A stretch of DNA of 64,000 nt, taken from NCBI GenBank assembly GCA_964468125.1, contig CAYXVF010000007.1:16531-80530 (forward strand), given 5' to 3'. This document shows positions 14,814 to 30,419 of this stretch, piece by piece (within the stretch, counting starts at the first letter, position 1; each line of letters opens with the position of its first letter). Below the pieces are notes generated by a model that was not told the DNA's origin, made no database searches, and worked only from the letters and a program-made list of their open reading frames with translations. The DNA comes from an uncultured Bdellovibrionales bacterium. Its GTDB lineage: Bacteria > Myxococcota > XYA12-FULL-58-9 > CAYXVF01. The translations under genes were made by a program, and so were the position numbers.

Positions 14814-14814
14814 C

Positions 14815-15672: not shown

Positions 15673-16514
15673 CACACGCGCACCGCAATGACACGCCGAA
15701 TGAACAACGCGCCACACGCCTCCATCAACACGACCAACGCGATCATCGTGTAGCCGAACCAGTGGCTCAACATCGGCCGAGTGAGGTCCGGTCGGATCGC
15801 GTCAAAGGCGAGCCATACCAGGACCGGCATCGCGCCAATCACGACCCCCTGGAGCCGGCCTTGCGCCGTGAGCGCACGGATACGTCCTTCGATCCGGAAG
15901 CGTTCCCGGATTGTGCTCGCGATCCGGTCGAACATCTCCGCTAGGTTGCCACCGAGTGACCTCGCCGTATTGACCGCGGTCACGACGAGCAACAGATCAT
16001 CGCTGCCGACCCGGCCCGCGAGATTCTCGAGCGCTTCTTCCGTGCTCGCGCCGAGGCGAATCTCCCGCACGGTGAGACCGAACTCCTGCGACAAGGGTGC
16101 GGAGGCTGTACGCCCCGTCTCCTCGAGCGCCTGCTGAAAGGTCATCCCCGCCCGGAGGGCCGCTGCGAGGCCGCCGAGCGCGTCGACGAGCTGGCGCTCG
16201 AAGAGTTTGATGCGACGGGCCCGATAGAAGCGGACGAGCAGGGTCGGGCTAGCCGCCCCAAATCCGACGAGGACGACCGTGACAACGGGGCCAAAGAGCA
16301 AGAGGCCCAGTGCCGCCCCCAAGGCCGTGATCGCCACCGTGAGGATCACGAGCTGACGCGGCCCGACGAAGAAGAACATTTCCGAGAGGTCGCTCACCCG
16401 CCGAGCCAGGTAGCGCTCCTCGTACTGGGCAAAGGCGCGCCGGAGCACGTCGATGACGACCACCGTGAGAAAGAAGACCGCGCCCGCGGTCATGAGAAGA
16501 ACGAGCACGTCCAT
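15672..16514 (-). CDS. tadB: Flp pilus assembly inner-membrane platform protein TadB-like (T2SSF domain)
   Basis: 'FERQLVDALGGLAAALRAGMTFQQALEE...' is a T2SSF/GspF-like domain with N- and C-terminal TM helices. 1-nt overlap with cpaB. Confidence 0.75.
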   Translation of the reverse strand: MDVLVLLMTAGAVFFLTVVVIDVLRRAFAQYEERYLARRVSDLSEMFFFVGPRQLVILTVAITALGAALGLLLFGPVVTVVLVGFGAASPTLLVRFYRARRIKLFERQLVDALGGLAAALRAGMTFQQALEETGRTASAPLSQEFGLTVREIRLGASTEEALENLAGRVGSDDLLLVVTAVNTARSLGGNLAEMFDRIASTIRERFRIEGRIRALTAQGRLQGVVIGAMPVLVWLAFDAIRPDLTRPMLSHWFGYTMIALVVLMEACGALFIRRVIAVRV

Positions 16515-17344
16515 CAGTTCGGCACCGTCTCGGTCTCGCGGCGGTCGCCGCGAATGATCTCGACCTTGAAGATCTTGGACTGTGTCTTCGAGATCCGTTT
16601 CGAGCGCTCACCGGTGAGCAGGGTCTGGAGAGTCGTACGACCTTCTCCGAGGTCATAGATCTCGTTGTCCTCCGGCGAACGCAGCGTGAGGTAAAGCTGG
16701 CCGAGCTCCTGCCCCAAAAGAAGCATCTCCGCCGCCTCCGGGAGCACGTGCAGGGTGACCGTGTTGTAGGCGCGCTCCGCCTCGCTCAAAAGCCTCCGGT
16801 TCGTGCGACCCCCGATCCTTCCCGTTGCGAGGACGATCACGTTCTGAAGCATCGTGACCGCGGCCATGTCCCGCCTCCCGTCGCGAAAAACGCCGAGCAC
16901 GTCGACCCGGTCGCCCGGCTCGATCCAGTGGTGCACAGAGCTTTCCGGGCTGACGCGTACGGACACGGCACGCCCCTTCTCCTGAATCGTACTCGAGAGC
17001 TTCTGATCACCGGCGAGCGTGTGAATGTGCGAGTAGAGAAGCACGTCACCCGCGAGCATGGGCGTTCCGAGCTTTCGGCCCACCACCGGCGCGCGATTGA
17101 AGTCTTCTACCGTGACCACCGACCGCGTCACTGAGCGGCGCGGCAAGGTGCCTACCGCCAATGCTTCGCGGGTCAGGGTATCGCCGACCTGCAAATCGCG
17201 GTTCGCGACGATCACCTCCACCGGGTCCCAACCGCGGGTAATCGCCTCGCGCTGCTTCTTGACGAGCAAGTAAGCCACGACACCGGCGAGAACCGCGAAG
17301 ACCGCGGCAATGATGAGGGGAGTACGTCCTTGCAGCATGGTCAT
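16514..17344 (-). CDS. cpaB: Flp pilus assembly protein CpaB/RcpC (SAF domain)
   Basis: N-terminal TM 'LIIAAVFAVLAGVVAYLL' followed by a SAF-like domain 'VIVANRDLQVGDTLTREAL...'. Typical CpaB length of 276 aa. Confidence 0.75.
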   Translation of the reverse strand: MTMLQGRTPLIIAAVFAVLAGVVAYLLVKKQREAITRGWDPVEVIVANRDLQVGDTLTREALAVGTLPRRSVTRSVVTVEDFNRAPVVGRKLGTPMLAGDVLLYSHIHTLAGDQKLSSTIQEKGRAVSVRVSPESSVHHWIEPGDRVDVLGVFRDGRRDMAAVTMLQNVIVLATGRIGGRTNRRLLSEAERAYNTVTLHVLPEAAEMLLLGQELGQLYLTLRSPEDNEIYDLGEGRTTLQTLLTGERSKRISKTQSKIFKVEIIRGDRRETETVPN

Positions 17345-17345
17345 C

Positions 17346-17549
17346 TCACGGAATGGGCAAGCTCAGGCCCGTGTGAATGGAATCGATGTAGATGTCGAAG
17401 GTGTTGACGAAGAGTCCAAAGACCGAGACGCGCCCGGCGCCGTCGGGTTCGGGCAGGTAAGGCACAAAGAGTACGACCGCCATCATCAGGAGGAGCAGGC
17501 CGTACTCCGTGGTGGCTTGGCCGCGTTCACTCTCATGGATTCGTTTCAT
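17346..17549 (-). CDS. flp: Flp/Fap-family pilin (67 aa prepilin)
   Basis: 'MKRIHESERGQATTEYGLLLLMMAVVLFV' carries the Flp G-x4-EY processing motif followed by a hydrophobic helix. GGGAGG SD 7 nt upstream. The ATG overlaps the upstream stop (ATGA). Not present as a separate entry in the ORF track; it is embedded in ORF 17346..17873. Confidence 0.75.
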   Translation of the reverse strand: MKRIHESERGQATTEYGLLLLMMAVVLFVPYLPEPDGAGRVSVFGLFVNTFDIYIDSIHTGLSLPIP

Positions 17550-18229
17550 CGTCGCGCCTCCCATCGCAGGGTGGCCGTGCTCTTCGCCTGCCCTGCTTCC
17601 TCGTCGCTGTAGACCGCGAGGTCGAGGTTCTCCTCCCCGTCGCCGAAGGAGGCGAACGCCCGCCGTCCATCTGAGAGTTGCGCGCGGGCCGGACCAAAGC
17701 GCTCTCCGTATCGCTCGATCAACGCATCGCCCTCGACCCTGCAACTCAGAGTCACAACCTCGCGCACTACCGCACCGTCGCGGCTCGCGCTGTGGTGGAG
17801 GGGCTCGCAGCTCTCGTCGATCGGAGCGCGTACGGTGTAGCCGCCCTCTCCAAAGAAACGACGACTCACCCACGCCACGGAGACCTTGCCCTGGCGAGCG
17901 ACCACGACGCTGCGACGCTCGTCACCGTCGGACGCGGTCAAGAGCTCCTCCTCTTCGTTGTAGCGGCGACTCACCACAAACCCCTCGCCGCGCCAGACCG
18001 CTTCGTAGTGCTCGACGATGGTGATCGGGTCGTCCATGCTCAGGAAGTAGGCGAGCTGTCGCTCATCACCATTGAGACGAACCCCTTCCCCGGCAGACAG
18101 GAGCCGATGCTCCGGGTAGTAGGCCCAGCGCAGATCGACCGGTGCACGACCGTCGCGGGCGGCGGCCACACCAGCGAGTGCCGCGAGCGCGCATCCGGCG
18201 AGGAGCACCATCGGAAAAGTACGGATCAT
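17546..18229 (-). CDS. secreted hypothetical protein encoded inside the Tad-like operon
   Basis: Signal peptide 'MIRTFPMVLLAGCALAALAGVAAA', then an acidic soluble domain of about 200 aa. ATGA overlaps on both sides. Confidence 0.6.
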   Translation of the reverse strand: MIRTFPMVLLAGCALAALAGVAAARDGRAPVDLRWAYYPEHRLLSAGEGVRLNGDERQLAYFLSMDDPITIVEHYEAVWRGEGFVVSRRYNEEEELLTASDGDERRSVVVARQGKVSVAWVSRRFFGEGGYTVRAPIDESCEPLHHSASRDGAVVREVVTLSCRVEGDALIERYGERFGPARAQLSDGRRAFASFGDGEENLDLAVYSDEEAGQAKSTATLRWEARR

Positions 18230-19353
18230 CGACACCTCCTGGATTGGGCATCGGCGCACCCCATGAATGCGTTGCCTCGAGCGTTCAGGGCCTCGAGCAT
18301 GTTGCTGCAGAGATCGCGGGGGTTGTCGAAAATCGGCAAGGTCTCGAACGACGTCACCGCGCCGTCCTCCTGTAGCTGCCCGCGCGAGACCCCGGTACGG
18401 CTGAAGGGATTGAACTGCCCGGCGAGCTCTTCGTAGCGTTCGCGATCAACCGCAACGCAGGAGCGGGCGTCGAGATAGGGGCGCGACACGACGTAGCGTC
18501 CCGCGTCCTTCGCCCCAACGAGGCCGAGAAGCCCACCCACCAGACCTCCGCCGGGAAGAACCTTCGGTGCCTCATCGTGAAAGCGCTCGACGACGTGCGC
18601 AAAGGCGCGCCGCGACTCGACCGACTCACTGGGCAGAACCGAGTAGCCGCTGTTGATTCGCCAGCTGTCCACGAGGAGCGTGGAGTCAACCGGCTGCCCT
18701 TCGTCGCGAAGCTCCCGTCCCTGCTGCCCCTGCACCACCGGGGTGAGGTCAAAGCGCGAAACCTCGGCGAGCGCAGCGAATCGTTCCCGGTCAGAGGCGC
18801 GCACCGGCGCAAGAATGCGAACGGAGCCGCGGCCGGTGACGAGACCGCGGTCGTTTAACCCGGCCCGTTGAAAGAAGCCCGCCGCGATGTCGTTCGTAGA
18901 GCCTCCCAATCCCAGCGCTCCGAGGATGAGAGACACGGTCGCGTTCGGCGCGGGGATCTCGAGGTTGGCCACGTCGGGAAGCACCGGCGCGCGCTCCTGG
19001 CGAGCTGCCGTCGGGAGCATCACCGCCGAGACGCTTTGCCGTGCCTGACCTGGAAGAAGCCTCGTGCGTGCCGCGTCGAGATCGAGATAAAGCGCACCGA
19101 CGCGGTCCCGCACGCGATCCCTGGCCTCGTTGAACTTCTCCGTATGCCTGGCGTTTTGACTCTCATAGTCCGAAAGGGGCTCTTGCGCGAAGGCCCAGGT
19201 ATTGAATCGCGCGATCTCCTGGGACTTGAGCTTAAAGAGGCCGACATCGATCAGGTAGACGGAGCCGTAGAACACGCCGATGAGAAGCGGCATGATCAAA
19301 GCGAACTCGGTCAACGCGGAGCCGCGCTCGTATTTCTCCGTTCGCCCTCTCAT
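18226..19353 (-). CDS. TadE/TadG-like pseudopilin (375 aa)
   Basis: N-terminal 'ERGSALTEFALIMPLLIGVFYGSVYL' is the TadE-like motif (PF07811-type). Confidence 0.7.
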   Translation of the reverse strand: MRGRTEKYERGSALTEFALIMPLLIGVFYGSVYLIDVGLFKLKSQEIARFNTWAFAQEPLSDYESQNARHTEKFNEARDRVRDRVGALYLDLDAARTRLLPGQARQSVSAVMLPTAARQERAPVLPDVANLEIPAPNATVSLILGALGLGGSTNDIAAGFFQRAGLNDRGLVTGRGSVRILAPVRASDRERFAALAEVSRFDLTPVVQGQQGRELRDEGQPVDSTLLVDSWRINSGYSVLPSESVESRRAFAHVVERFHDEAPKVLPGGGLVGGLLGLVGAKDAGRYVVSRPYLDARSCVAVDRERYEELAGQFNPFSRTGVSRGQLQEDGAVTSFETLPIFDNPRDLCSNMLEALNARGNAFMGCADAQSRRCR

Positions 19354-21005
19354 CAGAACATCATCGTGTTGTCGGCGAAGAAGTCTGCGATCACACCGCT
19401 CAATCCCAGGCTACCCAGGAGTCTGTCGGTCACGACACTCTTTGGCGCAAGGCGAGCGCCCCAGTAGGGATTGAAGAGATTCGGCGGCTCCCGCCAGGCA
19501 CCAGGGCGATGGTAGTAGACCTGCGCGCGGGCAATCGCGTTGACCCCACGAAGCGCTCCCGTCCCCAGGAGCCCGTCTTCCCCGATGCGCGCGTCGAGAC
19601 TCGCCACTTCTTCGCCGCGCCGGATCTCGAAGCTCAGATCCGACCCGGATTCCATTTCCCCCGGCGTCTTGTTCAAGAACACCCAAACGTCGGGCTGGTT
19701 GTAGTCGCGCACACCGTCAGCGGCGGCGTCGCTCTTCGACTTGAACCGAAAGTAGCGGCCGAGGCCTCGCCACTGGAGCCGCTGGCCGAACTCGTTCTCG
19801 TCGACGCATTGGAAGCCCGCCGCGTCTGGATCGCTCACCAGGGTAAAGAGCCTGGCTCCGAGAAAACCGGTGCTACCGTAGTCGTCGGGCTTCTCGTAGC
19901 GGCAGTAGCGATAGCCATCGCGGCCGGACTGCAGACTCGCAAAACCATCCCGCGCCGCGCGCGCGAGCGCAGGAATCGTCAAGATTCCGGTGCGAATGTC
20001 TTTCGAGGCCATCACCTCGCCGCGGGAGAGAAACGACGCTTCGTCCGCGCTGCGACCGGTATCCTCGAGCGTGTTCTCGTCGCCGAGACGAGTTAGGAGC
20101 TTCGAGGTCCCCTCGAATTGCAGGCCCGCAAAACCGGTCGCGAGCTCGTTGAGGCGTTCGCTGAGCCGCTTGCCCGCGCGTCGAGTGGACTTCTCCTGCG
20201 TCACCGATTCGAGCAGCTCGAGGGGCTCGGTGATCTCGTCGAGGATCCCGTTGCGCCACACGATCGTTCGCTGCCGCGCACCCGCAGCGAAGCGCGACGC
20301 ATTGATCACCTCTGCAAACGCCCGCTTTGATTCCGGAGACTTTTGGAGCGCCCCCGGGTCGAAGGCGTCGATGTAGGCGTACACGTTGTAGGCGTTGAAC
20401 GCGTAGGAGAGTGGGTGCAAACGCGCCCGCGGATCGTTTGCTTCGGCGATCTCTGGAGCTCCTTCGAGCAGGCGAGCGGTAGTGCTCGCCACCATGCCCG
20501 CCGCCATCGCGGTGTAGAGGGTGCTGAAGGCTGGCTCGCTCGCAAGTGCGGCCTCGAGGGCCGTCAGCTTCACCTCCAGCAAACCCGCCCGCACCTCGTA
20601 GACCGCTTGCAGCGATTGGCCGATGCCTTCGAGCGCCGAACCGGCGCTCGCGGTGAAGGGGATCGCGCTCAAGAAGCGACCGTAGGAGGTCGTGATGTCT
20701 CCGAGGTATCCGATGACCCCCACCGAGTAAGTCGAGCGCGAGACTTCTGCGTGCAGCTCGAGCAGCTCGAGCTGTCGAGCGGCGATCGCGCGGTTGCTGA
20801 AAGCGATGAAGTTGAAGCTCCGCGCAGACTGAGTGGCGAGCGAGTAGGCCGATGCATCGGCTGCGTTTTGCAGGGTGATCTTCTCGTAGACGGCGCGAGA
20901 GAAGTTGTAGGAAGTGTACATGCCGATCGCGAGGATCACGAGGGCTACAACCCCAAGTAGCGCCACCTGGCCGCGTTCGCGACGCGATGCTCGTCGCAAG
21001 CTCAT
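19353..21005 (-). CDS. TadG-like pseudopilin / pilus-associated protein (about 550 aa)
   Basis: N-terminal 'RRERGQVALLGVVALVILAIGMY' is Tad_N/TadG-like. Start placed at ATG 21005, which overlaps the upstream stop as ATGA. The listed ORF extends to 21029. Confidence 0.65.
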   Translation of the reverse strand: MSLRRASRRERGQVALLGVVALVILAIGMYTSYNFSRAVYEKITLQNAADASAYSLATQSARSFNFIAFSNRAIAARQLELLELHAEVSRSTYSVGVIGYLGDITTSYGRFLSAIPFTASAGSALEGIGQSLQAVYEVRAGLLEVKLTALEAALASEPAFSTLYTAMAAGMVASTTARLLEGAPEIAEANDPRARLHPLSYAFNAYNVYAYIDAFDPGALQKSPESKRAFAEVINASRFAAGARQRTIVWRNGILDEITEPLELLESVTQEKSTRRAGKRLSERLNELATGFAGLQFEGTSKLLTRLGDENTLEDTGRSADEASFLSRGEVMASKDIRTGILTIPALARAARDGFASLQSGRDGYRYCRYEKPDDYGSTGFLGARLFTLVSDPDAAGFQCVDENEFGQRLQWRGLGRYFRFKSKSDAAADGVRDYNQPDVWVFLNKTPGEMESGSDLSFEIRRGEEVASLDARIGEDGLLGTGALRGVNAIARAQVYYHRPGAWREPPNLFNPYWGARLAPKSVVTDRLLGSLGLSGVIADFFADNTMMF

Positions 21006-21982
21006 GGTGCTTCTCCGAGGCTGAACCACACGGGCTCGCGGCGGTTGTCCTCAAACAAATTCGACTGCATCTGCATGGCGTAGCTTGCGCGCAGAGGCAG
21101 GAGATAGAGGTCGTGGCGCTCGGCGAGCCATCGCAGGGTCCGCACTTCCTTGAGCCACTGGCTGGTCGTGAAGAAATCGTCGATGGGTCCGTCGCCGTCC
21201 GAAGAGCGCACCGCGTCCGACAACGTGCGCCCATCGCTCAGGCGCGTCTCGAGCTGCACCCAGTCACCCAGGTCGCTATTGAACGTCCGGCTATGCAGAA
21301 GCTCCTGCGCGAGCCAGAGCTCGAAGAGAATCCGGTTCACGAGCGGGATCCGCAGCGGATAGAGCACACGCACCTCGAGGGCGAGCGTGCCGAGCCCGTC
21401 GGGCGTGTTGGGATCGGCGAACATCGCCACGTCGTCAAAGTCGATCTCGCCGCTCGGGTAGCGCAGGGGCGCGCGCGGATCGACCGATTCGGAGAGGCGC
21501 GCCTGTCGGCTCGCCCACTCCCGAGCCGCCTCGAACTCTTCGCGGGTCGGGCGGGTCACGGCGACTTCGATGAGGGAGATGTCCTGAGCGAGCCCGGCGA
21601 TCTCGACGCCCAGCAGATCGCCGGCGAGACGCTCCACGGTGGCGGTGCCCGTGTCCACAGCCTCGGTGATCTCAGCGGCAGCTTTGACCTTGGCCCACGT
21701 TGCGAGATAGCGGCCGGCGTCATCCGTGCGATCGTAGAGGGGCAAGGTCGCCACCAGCGCGGCGTTGCGCATGACGTTCCAGTCCGCGTTGTGCACGATG
21801 CCCGCGCGGGTCGCGCAGTAGGCGGCGTATTCGGTGAGAATGCGACCGTGCTGCACGAGCATCAGCTGCAGCGCGCCGAGGGCGGCGAAGATCATCACGG
21901 GCATGATGATCGCCGTCTCGACCAGTGCTTGGCCGCGCTCGCCGCGGCGACCGCGACCCGTATGGGACCCAAGGCTCTTCAA
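21002..21982 (-). CDS. TadE-like pseudopilin (326 aa); first gene of the operon
   Basis: 'GERGQALVETAIIMPVMIFAALGALQLMLV' is the classic TadE N-terminus. A 300-nt non-coding region follows upstream (21983-22288). Confidence 0.7.
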   Translation of the reverse strand: MKSLGSHTGRGRRGERGQALVETAIIMPVMIFAALGALQLMLVQHGRILTEYAAYCATRAGIVHNADWNVMRNAALVATLPLYDRTDDAGRYLATWAKVKAAAEITEAVDTGTATVERLAGDLLGVEIAGLAQDISLIEVAVTRPTREEFEAAREWASRQARLSESVDPRAPLRYPSGEIDFDDVAMFADPNTPDGLGTLALEVRVLYPLRIPLVNRILFELWLAQELLHSRTFNSDLGDWVQLETRLSDGRTLSDAVRSSDGDGPIDDFFTTSQWLKEVRTLRWLAERHDLYLLPLRASYAMQMQSNLFEDNRREPVWFSLGEAP

Positions 21983-22288
21983 TGACCTACTTCCTGACGA
22001 GGCGCCCCGCCGGCGAAGGCGGACGCGCTCCCTTTCCTTATCGGCACCGGCAGGTGCGCTGGTGCGTGAGTCCGGCGATCGAAAACCGAGCTAAACGCCT
22101 GATTTTTGGTGGATTTCCACAGGGCTGGGCGGAGCCCAGGGCCCGCCCGGTCGAGCTGCACGCCGCGCCCGTCGCCGATCTGTGGTGGCCTGTCCACAGA
22201 TGTGTTCGACATCCTACAGGGACACACCACACTTTTTGCCGCCGATCGCGGTTTTCCGGGCCTTCTGACGTGGGTGGGTGATGGTCCG

Positions 22289-23608
22289 ATGTTTGCAGAA
22301 CCTTTCCGCGGCATGGATCGTTCCAAACTGAGAGTCTCATCATTCGCGCTCGCGCTGTCGGTGACGGTCGGCTGTGGCGTCGAATGGGTGGACGTAGAAG
22401 GAAGCGCTGTCGACTCGAGCCTCTTTGTCCCGAACGGGAGCACCGGCGGGGAGCAGAACGCGGGCGGCAACGACAACGACTCGGCGCTCGACTGTCCCGT
22501 CGACGAGCAGGCCGAATGGTCACGCTCGGGCTATCACGATTTCCTCCAGGCGAATTGCGGCCTCTGCCACCTCTTCGGTGAGCCCGCCACCGGCGCCTTC
22601 GCAGACCCGGACCTCTCTGTCGCATACTCCGAGTATTCGCTGCGCCCGGAGCAGGTCGTCGAGTTTTCGCTGAGCGCCACGCACAAGCCACCGTTCACGG
22701 GCCCGCATCTGCAGCCTGAGCTCGATGCGATCCTCGACGACTGGGAGGCGGTGCTGGGGCGCGTTGCCGCATGCGAGGCCGCGGAAGCGGAGAACACGAA
22801 CGACACGGAGTCACCCGGCGAGGAGCCTCGGGAAATCGTCACCGACCCGCTACTCGCGACCGTTGTCGAGTTCACCGCCCCGCTCGCCATGAACGCGACC
22901 GAAGAGGGGGTCACGCTGAGCTGGGAGCTCGCGAGCGCGCTGACGAGCGTCACGACGCCGGCGAGCCTCACCGACGTCGTCTTCGAGCTGACGGTTCGCA
23001 CGGTGGAGACCGCCACCGGGCAGCGCGCCTACCTGTTCTCCTCCCCCACCTTCAGCACGGGACCGCAGGCACTGAGCTTTGGCCGAATCGAAGTCCGCGT
23101 AAATGCCGCTAGGCCGAGCAGCGCGACGACCTTTCACAGCCTCGCGATCGCCGTTCCTTCAACGAGCACGATGACCGCGACCACCTCGGCGATGCCGGTC
23201 CCCTTCGACTTCAGCGCGAGCGACACCCTCGAGGTGGGCTTTGGCTTCATCAACGCCATCGACGACTTCGATCCCACCGAGCCTCCGCCGGTGGGTGGCG
23301 GAGACGACCCAGTCGGCGGCGGTGCTGATCCGGTTCCCGGCGTCACCTTCGCAACACTGAGCACCGGCGACGGGGTCTTCGCCCTCGAGTGCGTGAGTTG
23401 CCATTCAGCGGCGAATCCTGCTGGCGGACTCGATCTCACGAGCTACATGAGCACGCTCATGACGGTCACACCGAACGACCCGGATGCGAGCACGCTCGTG
23501 CAGCGCATGGAAGACCCAATGAACCCGATGCCACCAGCGGGGCTCTTGCCCCAGGCAATGATCGATAGCGTCCGCGAATGGATCGCATCAGGAGCACCTG
23601 AGGGCTGA
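22289..23608 (+). CDS. lipoprotein with two CxxCH motifs and a C-terminal planctomycete-cytochrome-C (PSCyt1)-like domain
   Basis: Lipobox 'LALSVTVGCG'. 'NCGLCHLF' and 'ECVSCHSAANPAGGLDLTSY...NPMPPAGLLPQAMIDSVREWIASGA' fit the PSCyt1 consensus C..CH...GGL.L...MPP...L...WI..GA. Alternative start at ATG 22313. The listed ORF starts at TTG 22106. Confidence 0.6.
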   Translation: MFAEPFRGMDRSKLRVSSFALALSVTVGCGVEWVDVEGSAVDSSLFVPNGSTGGEQNAGGNDNDSALDCPVDEQAEWSRSGYHDFLQANCGLCHLFGEPATGAFADPDLSVAYSEYSLRPEQVVEFSLSATHKPPFTGPHLQPELDAILDDWEAVLGRVAACEAAEAENTNDTESPGEEPREIVTDPLLATVVEFTAPLAMNATEEGVTLSWELASALTSVTTPASLTDVVFELTVRTVETATGQRAYLFSSPTFSTGPQALSFGRIEVRVNAARPSSATTFHSLAIAVPSTSTMTATTSAMPVPFDFSASDTLEVGFGFINAIDDFDPTEPPPVGGGDDPVGGGADPVPGVTFATLSTGDGVFALECVSCHSAANPAGGLDLTSYMSTLMTVTPNDPDASTLVQRMEDPMNPMPPAGLLPQAMIDSVREWIASGAPEG

Positions 23609-23644
23609 GGCCCTCCGGAGAGACGAGAGAGAGGAGTTGAGATC

Positions 23645-25237
23645 GTGAGCCATCTGCTTCTTCTAACCCTGCTGAGCCAAGCCCCTCAGGTTGAGACGGA
23701 GTTGGTCCTGAGCGAGGCCAACCCGGAGGAAACGATCACCATCGACATTCCTTCCGGCGAGGTGTCGATTCTGCAGCTGAACGTCCTCGACCCGGACTTC
23801 CCAGACGAAGGGGAGCTCTACATCAACGAGATGGGGCCGATCGCGCTCTTTCCCGGCGGAAACGGCGGCCTCGACAGCCAAACCGTCAACATCAACATCG
23901 CGCTCTCCCCGGAGCAGCAGGGTTGGTTCGTGGCCGGCCAGAATGCCCTGCGCTTCACCCGGGTCGCGACCGCGGGATACACGATTTTTAGGATCACCGC
24001 TCTCGGCGATCTCGCTCTCCTCACCTACGACGCGGTCATGCCCACCACGGACCCGGTGGACCAAGCGATGGAGAAGGCCTCCCTGCTCTATCGCCGGCTC
24101 GTCGGCCTACGCACGTCCGTGGACAACCCAACGGTCCGAGCGATGGCCGACTACATCGCCATCGACGATTGGGTCGGTGCGGCGATGGTCGCGACCGAGG
24201 AAGCGGGCTTCTACAACCACGTGGTTCGGGATTTTGCCGCGAAGATGTCAAACCAAGAGGTGAGCGTTGGAGCGCCACTCAACGACTTCGTAGCGACGAT
24301 CGTAGGCATCACCCGGGACGAGCTCGATGCGCGTGAAATGCTCACCGGCGACTTCTTCTATATGGCGACCGGCGACGCAGTGGCCGTGCCCTTGGACGTT
24401 CTTCAGGATGTGGTGACCTCGAACAATCACTACTCCGCCCTCGAGAACGAGCGCTACGACCTCGCTGCAGTTCTGAGCCGCATCGATCAGCAGTACATTC
24501 GCGACCCCTCTGCGACCGACGAGCTCGTAAGCCACCCGGAACCCGCCGGGGTGCTGACCACGCGAGGCTGGATGGAAGCGCACGCGACCGCGGGGACCAA
24601 CCGACGACTCGCGGAGTTTGCGATCAGCGAGTTCACCTGCACGGAGATGGAGCAGTGGGCGGACTCGACGAGCCCAGACGCATTCGTCTGGCGCGACGTG
24701 GACCGCTTCCCTGCCGGTGATGCCGCCCGCTACCAGACCGAGTGCAAGTCCTGCCATGCGAACCTCGATGCGTTCGCCGGCGCCTTCGCGCGCTTCGACT
24801 TCGAGAACGGGTTCACGAAGTACGCGCCGTACTACGCGGACGGCGAGGATGACCCGGACGCGATGAAGCAAGAACCCATGGGCGTCTCCGAGAAGATGAC
24901 CCACAACTCGGACGTCTTCCCGGAGGGATACTCGCTCACCGACGACCACTGGACGAACCTCGCCCGAAGCCCGGCAAACGAAGCACGCTTTGGTTGGCGC
25001 GGCGATGTGAACGAAGGGCAAGGAATCGCGAGCTTCGCGGAGGCGATCGCCAACTCGACGGCCTTCTCGCGCTGCATGGTCGAGCGGGTATTCAACGAGG
25101 TGTGCCTCCGTGCTCCAAGCGCTGCCGAGCTCGAGCTCATCAGTGGCCTCGCCTGCGACTTCGAGGCGAGCGGATACAACCTCAAGCAACTCTTTCAAAC
25201 CGTGGCTGCTCGTCCCGAGTGCCTCGGAGCGCACTAG
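23645..25237 (+). CDS. CxxCH-containing hypothetical protein (530 aa), possibly related to planctomycete DUF158x/159x families
   Basis: GTG start with a GAGAGAGGAG SD. Single 'ECKSCHANLDAF' heme-binding-type motif in the C-terminal third. Family assignment is by gestalt only. Confidence 0.5.
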   Translation: MSHLLLLTLLSQAPQVETELVLSEANPEETITIDIPSGEVSILQLNVLDPDFPDEGELYINEMGPIALFPGGNGGLDSQTVNINIALSPEQQGWFVAGQNALRFTRVATAGYTIFRITALGDLALLTYDAVMPTTDPVDQAMEKASLLYRRLVGLRTSVDNPTVRAMADYIAIDDWVGAAMVATEEAGFYNHVVRDFAAKMSNQEVSVGAPLNDFVATIVGITRDELDAREMLTGDFFYMATGDAVAVPLDVLQDVVTSNNHYSALENERYDLAAVLSRIDQQYIRDPSATDELVSHPEPAGVLTTRGWMEAHATAGTNRRLAEFAISEFTCTEMEQWADSTSPDAFVWRDVDRFPAGDAARYQTECKSCHANLDAFAGAFARFDFENGFTKYAPYYADGEDDPDAMKQEPMGVSEKMTHNSDVFPEGYSLTDDHWTNLARSPANEARFGWRGDVNEGQGIASFAEAIANSTAFSRCMVERVFNEVCLRAPSAAELELISGLACDFEASGYNLKQLFQTVAARPECLGAH

Positions 25238-25249
25238 GAGATGGGAACC

Positions 25250-25963
25250 ATGGCGAAGATTCTGCTGCGCTCACCGATTCTGCTGGCGCTCGCTCTCGCA
25301 GCCTGCTCGGCGGAAGAAGTTCAACCGACCGAGCAGGTCGCGATGAGCGGTGACGATGGGACGGGCTCCTCGAGTGGCCCGAATACACCGACCGAACCGG
25401 GCGGCGGCGCGACACCGGACGAACCGACGGACCCCATCGTGCCAACCCCCGAGCCCGTTGAGGTATGCACGGCTCCCGTGGCGACGGCCGCGGTCCCCGC
25501 CGAAGCCTCGGTGGTGCGTGCTAATCGTGCCCTCGACAATTTCGTCTCCTGCCTCGGGACCGGCACACCGAGTCGCGCTTCCGTCGACGCCTGGCGTGAA
25601 AACCGCGCGGCGCTGTCGACGACCGGAGACGCGGAGACAATCGGCGCCCCGGTGCTCCAAGCGCTCAACTCGATCGCGGCCGAAGTCTGCAACGATCTGG
25701 TCGAGCTCGAAGGCGCCCCCGAGGCGACGCCGAGGATATTTGCCGGGGTCGACCTCGACGCCGGAGCCCTGAGCGAGCGCGAGTCCGTGATGCAGCGGAT
25801 CGCCCGTTCGTGTTGGGGCCGAGAAGCGAGCAGCGCAGAGCGCGAACGCCTCGCCTCCGGCCTGGATGAAGCCTTTGCGGAAACCCCGGACCCGGGAGCG
25901 CGCATCGAGGGGTTGTTCCTGTGCACCTCGATGTTGAGCTCCCTTGCAGCGATCGAGATTTAG
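25250..25963 (+). CDS. hypothetical lipoprotein (P/T/E-rich linker then Cys-containing domain)
   Basis: 'MAKILLRSPILLALALAACSAEE' is a lipobox. AGGAG SD about 10 nt upstream of ATG 25250. The listed ORF starts at 25241. Confidence 0.55.
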   Translation: MAKILLRSPILLALALAACSAEEVQPTEQVAMSGDDGTGSSSGPNTPTEPGGGATPDEPTDPIVPTPEPVEVCTAPVATAAVPAEASVVRANRALDNFVSCLGTGTPSRASVDAWRENRAALSTTGDAETIGAPVLQALNSIAAEVCNDLVELEGAPEATPRIFAGVDLDAGALSERESVMQRIARSCWGREASSAERERLASGLDEAFAETPDPGARIEGLFLCTSMLSSLAAIEI

Positions 25964-25990
25964 AGCTCAGAACGTTTGGAGTGAGGACCC

Positions 25991-27442
25991 ATGCACGAGA
26001 AAGAAATCCAAGAACGAGAAGAAGAAAAGGCGGCGCGCGAGCTCGAGCGTCGTCGAACCTCCTACCGTGAGTTTTGTGAGGCCCATGGTCGACCCAAAAC
26101 CCGACGGGAGTTTCTCGAAGCTTGCGCCATCGGCTTTGGCGGCTATGTCATGCTGCCCACCACTTCGTCGCTTCTCTTCACCCCGGAAGCGTGGGCACAA
26201 AGCGGCGAGTGCCCTGCGCCCGTTCCTGCCAACGATCCGAACCGGCTGAGCCCGATCGTGAGCATCTCGCTCGGCGGCGGCGCAATGCTCTCGGGCAACA
26301 TGGTGCCCATGGGTCAGGACGGAAACCCTCTGCCCTCCTACGACAAGATGGGCCTCGGCCGCTCCCCGAATCTGGTCTCCCGCTTCGGAGGGGCCCGGTT
26401 CTTCGAGCGCAGCCAGCTCCTGGCCGGCATCGAGTCGGTCACGACCCAGGCCACGCGCGACAACACCGCTGCGGTCATGATTGCGGTGCGCTCCGGCGAC
26501 GACTCGCGCAACAACCGCATGAATATCGCTGGCCTCACGGCCGCCGCGGGCCTCACGGGAGAGGTGCTCCCGGATCTCGGCAGCAGCCGTCACATGGATG
26601 CCTTCGTGAGCTCCGCCTCGCCCCTCCAAGTGCGACGCTTTGGAGACCTGGCCAACGCCGCTTCCGGTGGCGGCTCCGGCGCGCTCGCGGTCCTCAGCCG
26701 CGAGCAACGTGCCTCGCTCCAGAACACGATCTTGCAGCTGAACGAAGAGCAAGCCCTCACCCTGGCTCAGCGCGGCCGGGGAGACGTGGCCGGCTTTCTT
26801 GCCCGGTGCGCTTCGCAGCAGAACTACCAGAACGCGACCGCCGAGCCGCCGCCGATCGACGTGCGTCAAACGCCCGCGCTCGCCGCGGCGTGGGGCGTGG
26901 ATGCGGGCACCGGCGACGGAGACCGCGAGGTGGTCTTCGGTTCCATGTTGCTCGCGAGTCTTCGGGGCTCTGCAGGACACGCGATGTTCGAGATCGGCGG
27001 CTACGACTACCACAACAACACCCGAACCCGTGGCGACGAGCGCGACTTCGAGGCGGGCGAGCTCATCGGTCGCACGCTCGAGACCGCGGCGCTCACGGGG
27101 CAGAAAGTGTTCATCTACGTCAGCAGCGACGGCGCATGCGTATCGCCCACGTCCGATGCAGATGATGCGCCCTGGCGGTCTGACCGGGGGAGCGCGGGCT
27201 CGATGCAGCTCTATGCCTACGACCCTGCGGGGCGCCCGAACCTCGCCAATGGTTGGCAGGTCGGCTGGTTCAACGACGCACAGGCGGCGGACACGTCGGT
27301 GATCGGCGGTGCGGAATCCGGAGCGGCTGCTGCATTCTTGAACTACATGGCCTTCAACGACAAGCTCAACATCGGCCAGAACCTGGTCTCAAACGTGTTT
27401 CAACCGTCGGACATCGAGCGGGTGGTGAAGTTCGGAGCGTAG
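25991..27442 (+). CDS. Tat-secreted DUF1501/DUF1552-like protein (sulfatase/alkaline-phosphatase-superfamily-like)
   Basis: Tat motif 'TRREFLEACAIGFGGYVMLP...AWAQ'. 'EIGGYDYHNN' resembles the GG-x-D-x-H metal-binding motif of DUF1501. Such proteins are typically encoded next to PSCyt-domain proteins. Confidence 0.55.
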   Translation: MHEKEIQEREEEKAARELERRRTSYREFCEAHGRPKTRREFLEACAIGFGGYVMLPTTSSLLFTPEAWAQSGECPAPVPANDPNRLSPIVSISLGGGAMLSGNMVPMGQDGNPLPSYDKMGLGRSPNLVSRFGGARFFERSQLLAGIESVTTQATRDNTAAVMIAVRSGDDSRNNRMNIAGLTAAAGLTGEVLPDLGSSRHMDAFVSSASPLQVRRFGDLANAASGGGSGALAVLSREQRASLQNTILQLNEEQALTLAQRGRGDVAGFLARCASQQNYQNATAEPPPIDVRQTPALAAAWGVDAGTGDGDREVVFGSMLLASLRGSAGHAMFEIGGYDYHNNTRTRGDERDFEAGELIGRTLETAALTGQKVFIYVSSDGACVSPTSDADDAPWRSDRGSAGSMQLYAYDPAGRPNLANGWQVGWFNDAQAADTSVIGGAESGAAAAFLNYMAFNDKLNIGQNLVSNVFQPSDIERVVKFGA

Positions 27443-27446
27443 GCGA

Positions 27447-29351
27447 TCACTCGTAGCGAATGGCGTCGACGGGGCGGGCGCGGGCGCCTTTGAGCGCTGG
27501 GTAGAGCGTCGCCAGATGTGAAATCACCATCGCCGAAATAGCGACCAGCGCGACCTCGAGCGGCCGGACGCGCACGGTGAGTGAATCGACCATGTAGACG
27601 TTCGCGGCGATCGAAATCCTCATCGCTTCGAGCGCGCTACAGACGAGCAGTCCGAGGGCGATCCCAACGGCCGTGCCCACGCCGCCAACGAACCAGCCTT
27701 CCATCACGAAAATCCGCATGATGCTCGTGTCGCGGGCACCCATCGACTTCAGGACGCCGATCTCCGCCGACTTCTCAACGACAGCCATGAAGAGCGTCGA
27801 TGCAATGTTGAACGCCGCCACGACGATGATGAAGCTCAGTACGAGAAAGAAGACGATCTTTTGAAGCGAGAGCGCGCGAAAGATCCCCTCGTTCAGTTTT
27901 CGCCAGTCGAGGGTACGATAGGGGTAGCGTCCGATCGCGCGCAGCACGCGATTCGCGGTGAGCTCCACCCGATCCGGCTGGGTGACGCGCAGCTCGACGC
28001 CGGTCACCGCCTTCCCCATCCCCATCAGCTTCTGCGTGGCGTCGATCGACGCATAGACCAGGCGTGAGTCGAACTCGTACATGCCCGAGCGAAAGGCGCG
28101 CCCCAGGCGAAAGCGCATCCGCTTGGGGGCATTTCCCCGCGCTCCGGCAAGCCCTACGGGTGTCGAGAGCAGGACGATCGAGCCCTCTTCGAGGTCGAGT
28201 TTTTCGAAGAGCTCCGCCCCGACCACCAGTGTTGGAACGCCATCGCGGTCCTGGACTGCATCGGTGAGCGCGGCGCTCGCCTCGTCGGCGCTCGAGTAGC
28301 GCACGCAGCCTCCCTCGACGATCTCCCGACACAGATTTCCGCCGATCCCGGTAACCTCCGCCGCGCTCGGAACTTCGATCCCTTTCAGGAGAATCGTGAA
28401 GGCTCGGTCGCCGGCGCTCATCATCGCTTCGTTGAAGGTGAAGGGGCTCGCGGCAGTGACATCGTCGAGCTGTACGACCGTATCGCGAATATCGTCGTAC
28501 TCGATGAAATCGTGGCCGTATTTCTGCACCACGAGATGGGCATTGGTGGAGAGGATTTTGTCCTGAACATCCTGCTGATAGCCGCTCATCACCGCGGTCA
28601 CCGCCACCAGCGCCGCAACGCCGAGGGCCACACCGCCGATCGCAACGACCGCGGTCAGTGACACCGCCGCACTCCGATCGCTTCCGAGGAGGTGCCGCAG
28701 GCTCACCATCAGCTCGAACCCCCGGCCGCGGCGCGCCACGTCGCTGCGAAGTGCGTCGGCCTTGTACATGAAGGCGAGCGAGCCCCCCACGATGCTCATC
28801 ACCCAGCTCGCAAAGAGGCAGAGCACGGAAGTCCGGACCCACATCTCACCAAAATAGCGGTAGCCCGGAGGTCGGGCGGCGTACATGTCAAAAAATGACT
28901 CGCCCGCGCCAGGACCGATACCGAACACGCTCTGCCAGCCGACGGCGAGGTGCACGCCGACCAAGACGCCCACCAGCATCATCAGGGCCTGGGTCTCGTA
29001 ATAGGCGATCCGTCGCCCGATCCACCCCATCACCGTGCCCGCAAGCCCGAGCACCAAGACGGCGGCGGTGAAGAGCAGCTCCGGATGAGCGCCGCCCCAC
29101 TGCTCGACGTCGAAGAAAATCGCGATCCGGGCCACAGGGAGCATCACCGCCGCAGTCAGCGCCCCGAGAGCGAAGGCGCCCCAGTGGAATTGGCGGCGCC
29201 AAACCGACAAGATGAGGCCCCAGATCAAAAAGAGCCACAGGAGCTTCACAGCGGTCCAGACCTGGCCTGCGATCCATGCGAGATAGGAGCGGCGCGGCTC
29301 TTCCGCGCGAGGTTTCGGTGGGCTATTCACAGCGTCGCAGGGGGCTAGCAT
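27447..29351 (-). CDS. FtsX/LolE-like ABC transporter permease with extra N-terminal membrane domain; no adjacent ATPase
   Basis: C-terminal 400 aa: 4 TM with a large periplasmic loop 'ILSTNAHLVVQKY...' and the FtsX signature 'EIGVLKSMGARDTSIMRIFVMEGWFVGGVG'. N-terminal about 230 aa form additional helices. Start set at ATG 29351; the listed ORF to 29738 would overlap the divergent gene. Confidence 0.7.
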   Translation of the reverse strand: MLAPCDAVNSPPKPRAEEPRRSYLAWIAGQVWTAVKLLWLFLIWGLILSVWRRQFHWGAFALGALTAAVMLPVARIAIFFDVEQWGGAHPELLFTAAVLVLGLAGTVMGWIGRRIAYYETQALMMLVGVLVGVHLAVGWQSVFGIGPGAGESFFDMYAARPPGYRYFGEMWVRTSVLCLFASWVMSIVGGSLAFMYKADALRSDVARRGRGFELMVSLRHLLGSDRSAAVSLTAVVAIGGVALGVAALVAVTAVMSGYQQDVQDKILSTNAHLVVQKYGHDFIEYDDIRDTVVQLDDVTAASPFTFNEAMMSAGDRAFTILLKGIEVPSAAEVTGIGGNLCREIVEGGCVRYSSADEASAALTDAVQDRDGVPTLVVGAELFEKLDLEEGSIVLLSTPVGLAGARGNAPKRMRFRLGRAFRSGMYEFDSRLVYASIDATQKLMGMGKAVTGVELRVTQPDRVELTANRVLRAIGRYPYRTLDWRKLNEGIFRALSLQKIVFFLVLSFIIVVAAFNIASTLFMAVVEKSAEIGVLKSMGARDTSIMRIFVMEGWFVGGVGTAVGIALGLLVCSALEAMRISIAANVYMVDSLTVRVRPLEVALVAISAMVISHLATLYPALKGARARPVDAIRYE

Positions 29352-29360
29352 AGGAACGGT

Positions 29361-30419
29361 ATGGGAACCAGAGTCTCCAAGTGGATCTCCGCGGGGGTCT
29401 TGAGCTTCGCAGTGCTCAGTCCAGCGAGTTTGCCTCTGGAAGCCACCGAAGCCCAGGCGAGCGACAGCCTCCGCGCCCGCCGCTTCGACAAGGTACAGGG
29501 GGTCACGATCTCCACCCACCGCATCGGCCTCGAATGGGGAACCGATGTGATCGGTCCCACTCTCGATCACATCGCGTCCGTCGGTGCCAACTGGGTCGCG
29601 ATTCACCCCTACGCGGGAATCGGATCGGACGGCACCGTGCGTTTCGATCGCTTCGACCCGGAGGCCTACGCGGAATCTGTGCGCCGACCGATCCGAGAAG
29701 CCCACGCCCGGGGACTGAAGATCCTGGTCAAGCCGCACCTCGCCTACTGGGGCACCGGCTTCAGCTGGCGCGGCGAGATCGACTTCGAAGGTGAGGCGCT
29801 CAAACGCTTCTTCGAGGACTATCGCCGATGGACGGTCTACCTGGCCGAGCTCGCCGCAGACGCGGATGCCTTTTCCGTCGGATGCGAGCTCGACCGTCTC
29901 CTACAACATGAAACTCAGTGGCGCTCGATCATTGCAGAGGCGCGAGGGAAGACCGATGCCCCTCTCACCTACGCGGCCAACTGGCCCACCTACGAGAAGG
30001 TGCCGTTTTGGGACGCCCTCGATGCGATCGGGATCCAGGCGTACTTTCCGCTCTCGGAGAATCCATCGCCAACGCGCACCGAGCTGAAGCAGGCCTGGGA
30101 CGGCTTGATGAAGAAGCTGCGCGTCTACTCCCGGTCGAAAAACAGGACCGTGGTCTTCACCGAGCTCGGCTACAATCATTCGACCGAGACGGCGCGCAAG
30201 CCCTGGGACTACGGCGTCGAGCACAACGCTCGCGCCGCATCGCTGCAGCGGCTCTGCTTTGAGGTCGCGCTCGAAGCGGTCGACGCTGAGCCGAGCGTCG
30301 TCGGCTCATTCCTGTGGAAATGGTTCCCCGAGCCACACCCAAACGGTCGGACCTACGCGCTCGCGACCGACGAGCTCAAAGCGTTGATCTGCGATCGCTG
30401 GTGCAAGACGGAGCCCTGA
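29361..30419 (+). CDS. secreted glycoside hydrolase, clan GH-A-like (GH5/GH26/GH113-type TIM barrel)
   Basis: Signal peptide 'ISAGVLSFAVLSPASLPLEATEA'. Candidate acid/base 'VGCELDR' and nucleophile 'VVFTELGYNHS' motifs are spaced about 100 aa apart. Confidence 0.55.
   Translation: MGTRVSKWISAGVLSFAVLSPASLPLEATEAQASDSLRARRFDKVQGVTISTHRIGLEWGTDVIGPTLDHIASVGANWVAIHPYAGIGSDGTVRFDRFDPEAYAESVRRPIREAHARGLKILVKPHLAYWGTGFSWRGEIDFEGEALKRFFEDYRRWTVYLAELAADADAFSVGCELDRLLQHETQWRSIIAEARGKTDAPLTYAANWPTYEKVPFWDALDAIGIQAYFPLSENPSPTRTELKQAWDGLMKKLRVYSRSKNRTVVFTELGYNHSTETARKPWDYGVEHNARAASLQRLCFEVALEAVDAEPSVVGSFLWKWFPEPHPNGRTYALATDELKALICDRWCKTEP

Follow-up and report, generated by a model that had tools for sequence, protein, structure and literature searches.

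What is the role of four adjacent genes for exported proteins, two of which carry CxxCH heme-binding motifs, in a member of the Bdellovibrionales? The question was raised by a 64,000-nucleotide (nt) stretch of DNA from an uncultured Bdellovibrionales bacterium (contig CAYXVF010000007.1; hereafter the window), in which four co-directional open reading frames (ORFs), p1, p2, p3 and p4 in that order, occupy positions 22289-27442 of the plus strand. An earlier note, made from the sequence alone, had read the cluster as a reduced form of the planctomycete pairing of PSCyt/DUF1549/DUF1553 cytochromes with DUF1501-type proteins, and had suggested a tie to the neighboring genes. We are highly confident that the cluster encodes a conserved four-component periplasmic system. 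With belief and doubt about evenly balanced, we further read this system as membrane-tethered, and as a compact, split relative of the uncharacterized "planctomycete cytochrome/PSD + DUF1501/DUF1552/DUF1800" pairs. The view of a PSCyt/DUF1501-like periplasmic module is kept in spirit; the family assignments and the link to neighboring genes that came with it are not.

Conservation and Synteny of the Four Genes

The ORF map confirmed four genes on one strand with short gaps, as the earlier note had described them (36 nt between p1 and p2, 3 nt between p2 and p3, and 27 nt between p3 and p4; Table 1). Ribosome-binding sites of the GGAG type were found upstream of p2 and p4. The start of p1 is ambiguous, with ATG codons at 22289 and at 22313 (MDRSKLR...) and a clear ribosome-binding site at neither. 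Only three CxxCH motifs were found in ORFs of at least 100 amino acids (aa) across the 64 kb, two in p1 and one in p2.

Related loci were sought with a 16-sequence subset of the p4 alignment as query, the 32-sequence version being too diverse. A scan of 185,579 species genomes returned 138 relatives, and 80 loci were kept. Seventy-one of these are titled Bdellovibrionota (Bdellovibrionales, Pseudobdellovibrionaceae, Bacteriovoracaceae, Halobacteriovorax and Oligoflexia), and the other nine come from Myxococcota or Gammaproteobacteria, plus one "Sulfitobacter". The last, a metagenome-assembled genome (MAG) named Sulfitobacter sp. (L074), matches a Halobacteriovorax locus (L072) in the arrangement and sizes of its ORFs and is probably a binning or contamination error.

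Gene orders were determined by iterated hidden Markov model (HMM) searches over all ORFs of 87 loci. The exact order p2-p3-p4-p1 was found in 39 of these, about 29 more showed that order with extra cytochrome-like ORFs, and other loci were cut by contig ends. The genomic contexts of p4 homologues and of p2 homologues always contained the same four genes, and in the fetched loci a genome has one copy or, in a few cases, two. In the window the genes run p1-p2-p3-p4, which is p2-p3-p4-p1 permuted cyclically, and this order was seen only in the window's own lineage; an independent Sequence Read Archive (SRA) assembly has the p1-first order beside divergent Tad genes, with a p2 that is 88% identical, and a second, short contig carries an upstream ORF followed by p2 and p3. 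In seven loci (Gammaproteobacteria, Myxococcota and Oligoflexia) a single gene between p2 and p4 replaces p1 and p3, and its product runs from the N-terminal heme domain of p1 through Laminin_G_3 or Calx-beta and the middle domain of p1 (p1M) to a C-terminal p3 domain. The four-gene and three-gene forms occur together in one MAG (L068, L087).

The p1-p3 fusion and the strict synteny together indicate that the products work together, and this is the strongest evidence that we have. From synteny, fusion and the short gaps we infer that the four genes are one operon and one functional unit. The form seen here is not a reduction peculiar to this genome, as had been supposed; it is a separate, well-conserved module centered on the predatory bacteria of the Bdellovibrionota.

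The probability that unrelated secreted-protein genes lie side by side by chance is next to negligible. Its only support was the lack of detectable promoter or terminator signals: the sigma-70 consensus was not found in 21983-22288, which we presume from the divergent ORF map and the sequence to be the operon's promoter region, and a promoter/terminator scan gave nothing above shuffled expectation. Chance adjacency is refuted by the synteny, as most of the 87 loci, across Bdellovibrionota, Myxococcota and Gammaproteobacteria, keep the cluster with changing flanks, and by the domain fusion and the 3-36 nt gaps. The cluster also holds the only CxxCH motifs in the window's ORFs of at least 100 aa, recurs in the SRA assembly and has the G+C content of the window (0.650 versus 0.644), which likewise argues against chance. 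Recent horizontal transfer was considered and rejected on the same G+C content. No RNA family was found in an Rfam search of the window.

p1 and p2 Are Predicted c-Type Cytochromes

p1 is built of an N-terminal heme domain, the beta-rich p1M, and a C-terminal PSCyt1/class I cytochrome c domain. It is predicted to be lipid-anchored from the features of bacterial lipoproteins: a signal-peptide-like segment precedes the lipobox cysteine in all 48 homologues, and position -3 of the lipobox holds an atypical Thr. In the N-terminal domain C90, C93, H94 and His132 (22682-22684) do not vary among homologues (48/48 and 30/30). The second CxxCH (CVSCH, aa 368-372, 23390-23404) opens a region (aa 368-418) that matches PSCyt1 (PF07635) with 36.2 bits (E = 9.6e-9), above the gathering (GA) score of 22, and 21 of 30 homologues match this family as well, so that the PSCyt1 consensus recognized by the earlier note is genuine. 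The profile of this domain also matches FoxE, cytochrome c6, CcoP and QcrC (E = 3.5e-8 to 1e-5). Most Bacteriovoracales-type homologues lack the second CxxCH and C-terminal domain, which is therefore accessory; in some loci an extra small di-heme protein supplies it. No Pfam or NCBIfam family matched p1M, and neither PSCyt2 nor PSD1 was among the 25 listed p1-family matches.

The signal peptide of p2 is short, and its homologues carry Sec-type signals. Among 54 p2 homologues C367, C370, H371, four other Cys and GTNRR (aa 317-321) never vary, and each of the 73 p2 homologues listed for the loci has at least one CxxCH (two in one of them). Both p1 and p2 are predicted to be c-type cytochromes, given the invariant CxxCH motifs, the signal peptides of the proteins that carry them, and the match of the p1 C-terminal domain to solved cytochromes c.

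The C-terminal domain of p2 is of the PSD2 (DUF1585, PF07624) type at family level. The window's p2 scored 17 bits (E = 0.005), below the GA of 25.8, and 44 of the 54 family members matched (best E = 6e-8), with the consensus at 36.3 bits, above GA; many database relatives carry a precomputed PF07624 annotation. PSCyt3 (DUF1588, PF07627) gave 14.4 bits on the window's p2 (E = 0.047), short of its GA of 27, and weak matches in 25 of the 54 members (best E = 0.001; consensus E = 0.23), restricted to the CxxCH stretch. DUF1800 was matched by three of the 54 and weakly by the consensus, over the PSD2 stretch (E = 7e-4), and the p2 profile did not match the one DUF1800 sequence with which it was compared. 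PSCyt2 (PF07583) was absent from the p1 and p2 scans, the listed p2-family matches and the p2 consensus, and PSD1 (PF07587) appeared only with the consensus at E = 0.15. The assignment of p2 to a DUF1549/DUF1553 (PSCyt2/PSD1) type was thus not borne out, as the family carries PSD2 and a weak PSCyt3. No relative of the helical heme part was found in the PDB by sequence profile. Weak matches to cytochrome P460 (E ~0.07) were set aside, since the CxxCH end of the alignment was judged to account for them.

The N-terminal module of p2 resembles a CBM6/35-type fold (CBM, carbohydrate-binding module). Laminin_G_3 was found in eight of the 54 family members, and PA14 and Calx-beta are also present in homologues of the module. 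In a subgroup with long p2 proteins (about 670-840 aa, several with an N-terminal Laminin_G_3) the gene directly upstream on the same strand encodes an FG-GAP/Big_7 repeat protein of about 630 aa (L005:4961-6967 and 14 other loci).

p3 Is a Predicted Lipoprotein of No Known Family

p3 consists of a lipobox (LAAC22), a Pro/Thr-rich low-complexity linker and, at aa 88-240, a conserved domain some 150 aa long, in which Cys150 and Cys228 are invariant. It bears the marks of a bacterial lipoprotein and, like p1, is predicted to be lipid-anchored. Neither Pfam nor NCBIfam holds a family for it, and its consensus matched no PSD domain; one homologue matched PSD5 (DUF1595) marginally (E = 0.014). A Sox-like role as thiol carrier was considered and dropped. 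SoxY has a C-terminal GGCGG motif; the invariant cysteines of p3 are internal or pre-terminal, and no such C-terminus is present.

p4 Combines a Tat Signal With a Predicted Alkaline-Phosphatase Fold

Twin-arginine translocation (Tat) is the pathway that exports proteins which take on their fold, or a metal or cofactor, while still in the cytoplasm. p4 begins with KTRREFLE, a hydrophobic stretch and AWA, in agreement with the pattern of Tat substrates (S/T-R-R-x-F-L-K, hydrophobic, AxA), and is a predicted Tat substrate; the invariance of both arginines and L42 supports the signal that the earlier note had pointed out. Ahead of the arginines lies a highly charged, predicted-helical extension of 20-35 residues, which is conserved in the family and unusually long for a Tat n-region. 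In p4 (aa 1-37, 25991-26101) a helix is predicted at residues 2-32, and the first two 10-residue blocks have a predicted local distance difference test (pLDDT) score of 86 and 83. No dedicated chaperone gene was found in the cluster.

Searches of Pfam and NCBIfam with the window's p4, with 32 relatives at E <= 10 and with the family consensus gave no match. Sequence and profile searches of the PDB with p2, p3 and p4 returned nothing meaningful, and no plasmid matched p4 in a tblastn search. Thirty-three word-indexed relatives of p4 were found among 5.8 billion proteins, and an exhaustive profile search returned 1392 representative clusters at E <= 1e-3, 632 of them at E <= 1e-30.

The AlphaFold2 model of p4 has a pLDDT of 84.8, and p4 is predicted to adopt the alpha/beta fold of the alkaline-phosphatase superfamily. 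The 32 homologues share 26 invariant columns, including the twin arginines, D171, N175, D339, H341, R345, D352, D380 and D398. Invariant residues stand directly after predicted strands (G96-G97, D171/N175, G336-G337/D339-Y340-H341/R345, D380-G381 and D398): DDSRNN comes after beta-strand 159-166 and GGYDYH, whose Y338 is at least 90% conserved, after strand 331-335. Residue 172, within DDSRNN, is Ser or Thr in most members. The invariant Asp, His, Asn and Arg residues thus sit just where the alkaline-phosphatase fold builds its metal site. As judged from this model, p4 appears to define an unclassified branch of the superfamily.

Compared with known enzymes of the superfamily (NPP, S1 sulfatases, the phosphoethanolamine transferases EptC/MCR-1, PhoK/PafA and cofactor-independent phosphoglycerate mutase), p4 has 4-15% sequence identity, and it matched no PDB chain at sequence level. 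It differs from them by the missing beta-1 Asp and the lack of an invariant Ser/Thr/Cys nucleophile, by a helical insertion of about 140 aa, and by its obligate association with c-type cytochromes. At the catalytic level, where the superfamily is defined by the beta-1 metal Asp and a Ser/Thr/formylglycine nucleophile, p4 does not conform to it.

Neither the DUF1501 (PF07394) nor the DUF1552 (PF07586, HXXSHH) HMM matched p4, its 32 relatives at E <= 10 or the family consensus; the DUF1501 HMM detected its positive control with 99.3 bits (L018:3076-4341). The HxxSHH motif was found neither in p4 nor anywhere in the translation of the window, DUF1552 being compared by HMM and motif only. An alignment of DUF1501 was built from the DUF1800 + DUF1501 pair of that control locus, and its 37 members gave the invariant motifs GGxD-G after beta-1, R-S-H-F, G-W-D-T-H, S-E-F-G-R-T and G-T-D-H-G. 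The p4 counterparts are LGGGAM (no Asp), DDSRNN, GGYDYH, SSDG and RSDRG, which retain just the third motif's GG and D.H; the DUF1501-invariant D46, S114-H115-F116, E325..R328 and H340 are missing. An hhalign comparison gave a probability of 41.7%, covering the Tat signal and beta-1 only. With larger profiles p4 aa 36-174 aligned with DUF1501 aa 1-114 (P = 8e-4, signal peptide included), and the mature proteins gave P = 0.054, which is not significant, with a low-stringency alignment colinear over 351 columns. This alignment pairs LaGGa of p4 with LRGaxDG of DUF1501, S.DD[ST]..N with GSP.TRSHF, GGYDYH with GGWDTH, VTSDG with VMSEFGR, and SDRG with GTDHG. Their spacing is similar too, successive motifs being 74/168/41/18 aa apart in p4 and 68/161/50/14 aa apart in DUF1501. 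In sequence terms p4 appears DUF1501-like in architecture and falls outside PF07394. The proposal that GGYDYH is a motif of the DUF1501/DUF1552 type stands as far as its invariance and its alignment with GGWDTH go, and fails in that neither HMM matches and HxxSHH is absent.

Relation to PSCyt/PSD Modules of Other Bacteria

PSCyt/PSD + DUF1501/DUF1552 pairs are known from Planctomycetes and Verrucomicrobia, with many DUF1501 clusters per genome (PMC3542564, PMC5615132). In the Planctomycetes-Verrucomicrobia-Chlamydiae (PVC) group, DUF1501 modules with PSCyt1/PSCyt2/PSD1 partners and Laminin_G_3 fusions have been described, with their function left open (Kamneva et al., 2012, PMC3542564). A four-gene form comprises DUF1501, a PPC-like secreted protein, a PSCyt1/Big_2/PSCyt2/PSD1 protein and a PSCyt1/WD40 protein (PMC3542564), and Tat export of DUF1501 was argued to permit cytoplasmic folding or the uptake of metal or cofactor (Kamneva et al., PMC3542564). 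PSCyt2 and PSCyt3 genes each adjoin a family of unknown genes, and CBM fusions occur (He et al., 2017, PMC5615132); both studies report associations with CBMs in the PSCyt proteins of the PVC group (PMC5615132, PMC3542564). The titles and abstracts of the literature searched contained no functional characterization of DUF1501, DUF1552, DUF1585, DUF1800 or PSCyt, and no description of such a module in Bdellovibrionota. The earlier statement that such systems have no established function agrees with this, and with the lack of characterized relatives of the proteins.

The resemblance in composition to PVC "PSCyt + DUF1501" modules (PMC3542564) that the earlier note had seen was recovered. A Tat-signal, enzyme-like protein lies beside CxxCH proteins, PSCyt1 is present, Laminin_G_3 lectin-type modules occur on the heme partner, and a four-gene version exists in both. 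The cluster differs from those modules in that p2 lacks PSCyt2 and PSD1, p4 falls outside PF07394, two components are lipoproteins, the fetched loci show one or two copies per genome and no large expansions, and the hosts are mainly Bdellovibrionota. It is improbable that the cluster pairs a canonical PSCyt1-DUF1549-DUF1553 cytochrome, in reduced form, with a true member of DUF1501 or DUF1552, as the earlier note had it. The PSCyt1 domain of p1, the Tat signal and GG[WY]D.H motif of p4, and the occurrence of a true DUF1800 + DUF1501 pair beside the module at one locus would fit such a reading. It is contradicted by the p1- and p2-family searches for PSCyt2 and PSD1, by the HMM results for p4, its family and its consensus, and by the loss from p4 of the DUF1501-invariant residues listed above.

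That locus, in a Bdellovibrionales MAG, has DUF1800 (177 bits) and DUF1501 (99 bits) directly upstream of p2-p3-p4-p1 on the same strand (L018:1055-4341). The cluster is like DUF1800 + DUF1501 pairs in the weak DUF1800 match of the p2 consensus, and in the Tat signal, motif order and spacing of p4. It is unlike them in that profile-profile support is weak and key DUF1501 residues are replaced in p4.

A third comparison is with the PSD3-PSD5-PSD4-PSCyt3-PSD2 (DUF1587/1595/1592/1588/1585) proteins of planctomycetes and Verrucomicrobia, with which the module shares PSD2 and a PSCyt3-like CxxCH stretch in the p2 family, CBM-type fusions, and pairing with a Tat-signal protein. We take the DUF1588/DUF1585 architecture to be the planctomycete one that pairs with DUF1552. 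It is possible, if somewhat unlikely, that the module is such a protein split up, with the N-terminal domain of p1, p3 and p2 as successive parts and p4 as a divergent DUF1552; this would concern the origin of the families only. PSD2 at family level, the weak PSCyt3 at the CxxCH, the p3 homologue that matches PSD5, and the fusion of p1 and p3 domains in some loci would agree with it. Against it, there are no PSD3 or PSD4 matches and PSD5 is marginal in a single p3 homologue, the p3 consensus has no PSD match, p4 and its relatives show neither PF07586 nor HXXSHH, and four polypeptides stand in place of one; the sole profile-level similarity found for p4 is to DUF1501, the one of the two families compared with it by profile-profile alignment.

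Proposed Mechanism and Its Rivals

If the module is, as we favor, a membrane-tethered relative of these pairs, then after export and heme attachment the four proteins would assemble on the membrane via the lipid anchors of p1 and p3. The beta-sandwich modules would bind a glycan-type or envelope polymer substrate, and p4 would be the metal-dependent catalytic subunit, with Tat export letting metal or cofactor load in the cytoplasm. Three c-hemes (p2, the N-terminal domain of p1 and its PSCyt1 domain) would carry electrons between a p4/p2 center and the respiratory chain, which would be reached through the cytochrome c6-like domain of p1. Since the hemes would pass electrons from or to the p4/p2 center, the reaction would be redox-coupled and no plain ester hydrolysis. 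In its fullest form, which we put forward as a speculative and rather unlikely proposal, p4 would be the first of its kind, a metalloenzyme with an alkaline-phosphatase fold that is hard-wired to c-type cytochromes, and its Tat-delivered, redox-active metal center would oxidize or reduce a glycan or envelope polymer by way of the three hemes, not hydrolyze it.

Several observations weigh against this mechanism. p4 has no Asp after beta-1, a metal ligand in both the superfamily and DUF1501: it has LGGGAM, not GGxDG, and the position is M, A, G or N across the family, as mapped from secondary structure and hhalign. At the nucleophile position the Ser/Thr is Phe in three of the 32 members, and where DUF1501 has the His of its "DH" pair, p4 has Arg. 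p4 may therefore be no canonical hydrolase, or no enzyme at all. The clustering of its invariant residues in three dimensions is read from secondary structure only, and complex formation only from synteny and one type of fusion. Many p2 homologues lack the CBM-like module, and no characterized homologue of any of p1-p4 was found in Pfam, NCBIfam or the PDB. To our knowledge no alkaline-phosphatase-fold enzyme works with c-type cytochromes, so that redox coupling would be unprecedented.

The same losses in p4, of the beta-1 Asp and of an invariant nucleophile position, would be expected if p4 were a pseudo-enzyme scaffold, with structural or sensing hemes, in a device for envelope assembly or uptake, or if it were a plain phospho- or sulfo-esterase with unrelated hemes. 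Lipid anchors and lectin-like modules would suit a binding or uptake device, and 22 loci encode a CxxCH protein that looks like an outer-membrane barrel. We nevertheless consider these possibilities unlikely: the 26 invariant columns, rich in Asp, His and Arg where the sheet has its catalytic edge, speak for an active site that is maintained, the invariant CxxCH of two partners and a domain of electron-carrier type argue for electron transfer, and strict co-occurrence and the fusion speak against the hemes being bystanders.

Should the catalytic, cytochrome-wired logic of p4 be true, it would explain the whole PSCyt/PSD/DUF1800 + DUF1501/DUF1552 superfamily, of which Bdellovibrionota would hold a minimal, low-copy version. 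Bdellovibrionota include genetically tractable species. A high number of DUF1501 copies per genome would presumably hamper genetics, and four small proteins at low copy in a phylum with cultivable members would be a far simpler setting in which to learn what periplasmic machinery of this class does. p3, p4 and p1M are without a Pfam or NCBIfam family, and the module would add one or more new branches to the alkaline-phosphatase superfamily.

Neighboring Genes and Optional Partners

A Tad/Flp pilus-type locus lies divergent from the cluster, and genes for a permease and a glycoside hydrolase follow p4 (Table 1). A functional link to the Tad operon or to the GH113 gene, as suggested by the earlier note, was rejected: these neighbors recur only in the window's close lineage, the Tad adjacency being seen also in a close relative (L088), and none of Tad, GH113 and the MacB/FtsX-type permease was among the 25 most recurrent neighbor families of the related loci. 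Flanking genes vary between loci and include ATP synthase, mraZ/mur genes and, in Bacteriovoracales, LspA (lipoprotein signal peptidase II, PF01252). In Bacteriovoracales/Halobacteriovorax loci the LspA gene lies directly after p1 (for example L072:9830-10696 and L002:8198-9049).

Table 1. Coordinates of the cluster, its sequence features and its neighbors in the window.
Feature	Position	Strand	Remarks
p1	22289-23608	+	439 aa, predicted lipoprotein c-type cytochrome
p1 Cys29	22373..22375	+	lipobox cysteine (..TVGC), invariant in 48/48 homologues
p1 first CxxCH (CGLCH, aa 90-94)	22556..22570	+	predicted core heme site; invariance in homologues
p1 PSCyt1/class I cytochrome c domain	23354..23584	+	PF07635 HMM
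p2	23645-25237	+	530 aa, predicted Sec-exported mono-heme protein
p2 N-terminal beta-sandwich (aa 15-120)	23687..24004	+	CBM6/35/36-type-like
p2 CxxCH (CKSCH, aa 367-371)	24743..24757	+	invariance; weak PSCyt3 (DUF1588) match falls here
p2 C-terminal PSD2 (DUF1585)-type domain (aa 458-521)	25016..25207	+	family-level HMM
p3	25241-25963	+	240 aa, predicted lipoprotein
p3 Cys22	25304-25306	+	lipobox cysteine, conserved in 71/71 homologues
p4	25991-27442	+	483 aa, Tat-signal protein, predicted alkaline-phosphatase-superfamily fold
p4 R38-R39 (in KTRREFLE)	26102..26107	+	twin arginines; R38, R39 and L42 invariant in 32 homologues
p4 DDSRNN (aa 170-175)	26498..26515	+	D171, N175 invariant; at position of DUF1501 TRSHF
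p4 GGYDYH (aa 336-341)	26996..27013	+	candidate metal-ligand motif (D339, H341); G336, G337, D339, Y340, H341 and the nearby R345 invariant; aligns with DUF1501 GGWDTH
p4 D380-G381 (..SSDG) and W395..D398 (PWRSDRG)	27128..27184	+	conserved acidic residues at strand ends
Intergenic region between TadE-like gene (minus strand) and p1	21983..22288		divergent; presumed site of operon promoter
Tad/Flp pilus-type locus	13413-22090	-	divergent from cluster
TadE-like	21002-21982	-	
TadG-like	19353-21029	-	
RcpC/CpaB	16514-17362	-	
FHA/YscD-like protein	13413-14861	-	
MacB/FtsX-type permease	27447-29738	-	763 aa; convergent with p4, stop codons 4 nt apart
GH113 glycoside hydrolase	29361-30419	+	

The barrel-like CxxCH protein mentioned above, of about 385-434 aa, is encoded beside the module in 22 of the 87 loci (for example L034:9690-10859 and L072:10868-12031) and is absent from the window. 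It has a signal peptide and a conserved C-I/L-T-C-H-Y-N..GNGPLTDYGRA, and belongs to no Pfam family. A long beta-rich region after the motif and an aromatic last residue give it the look of an outer-membrane barrel, and it may be an optional fifth component of the system.

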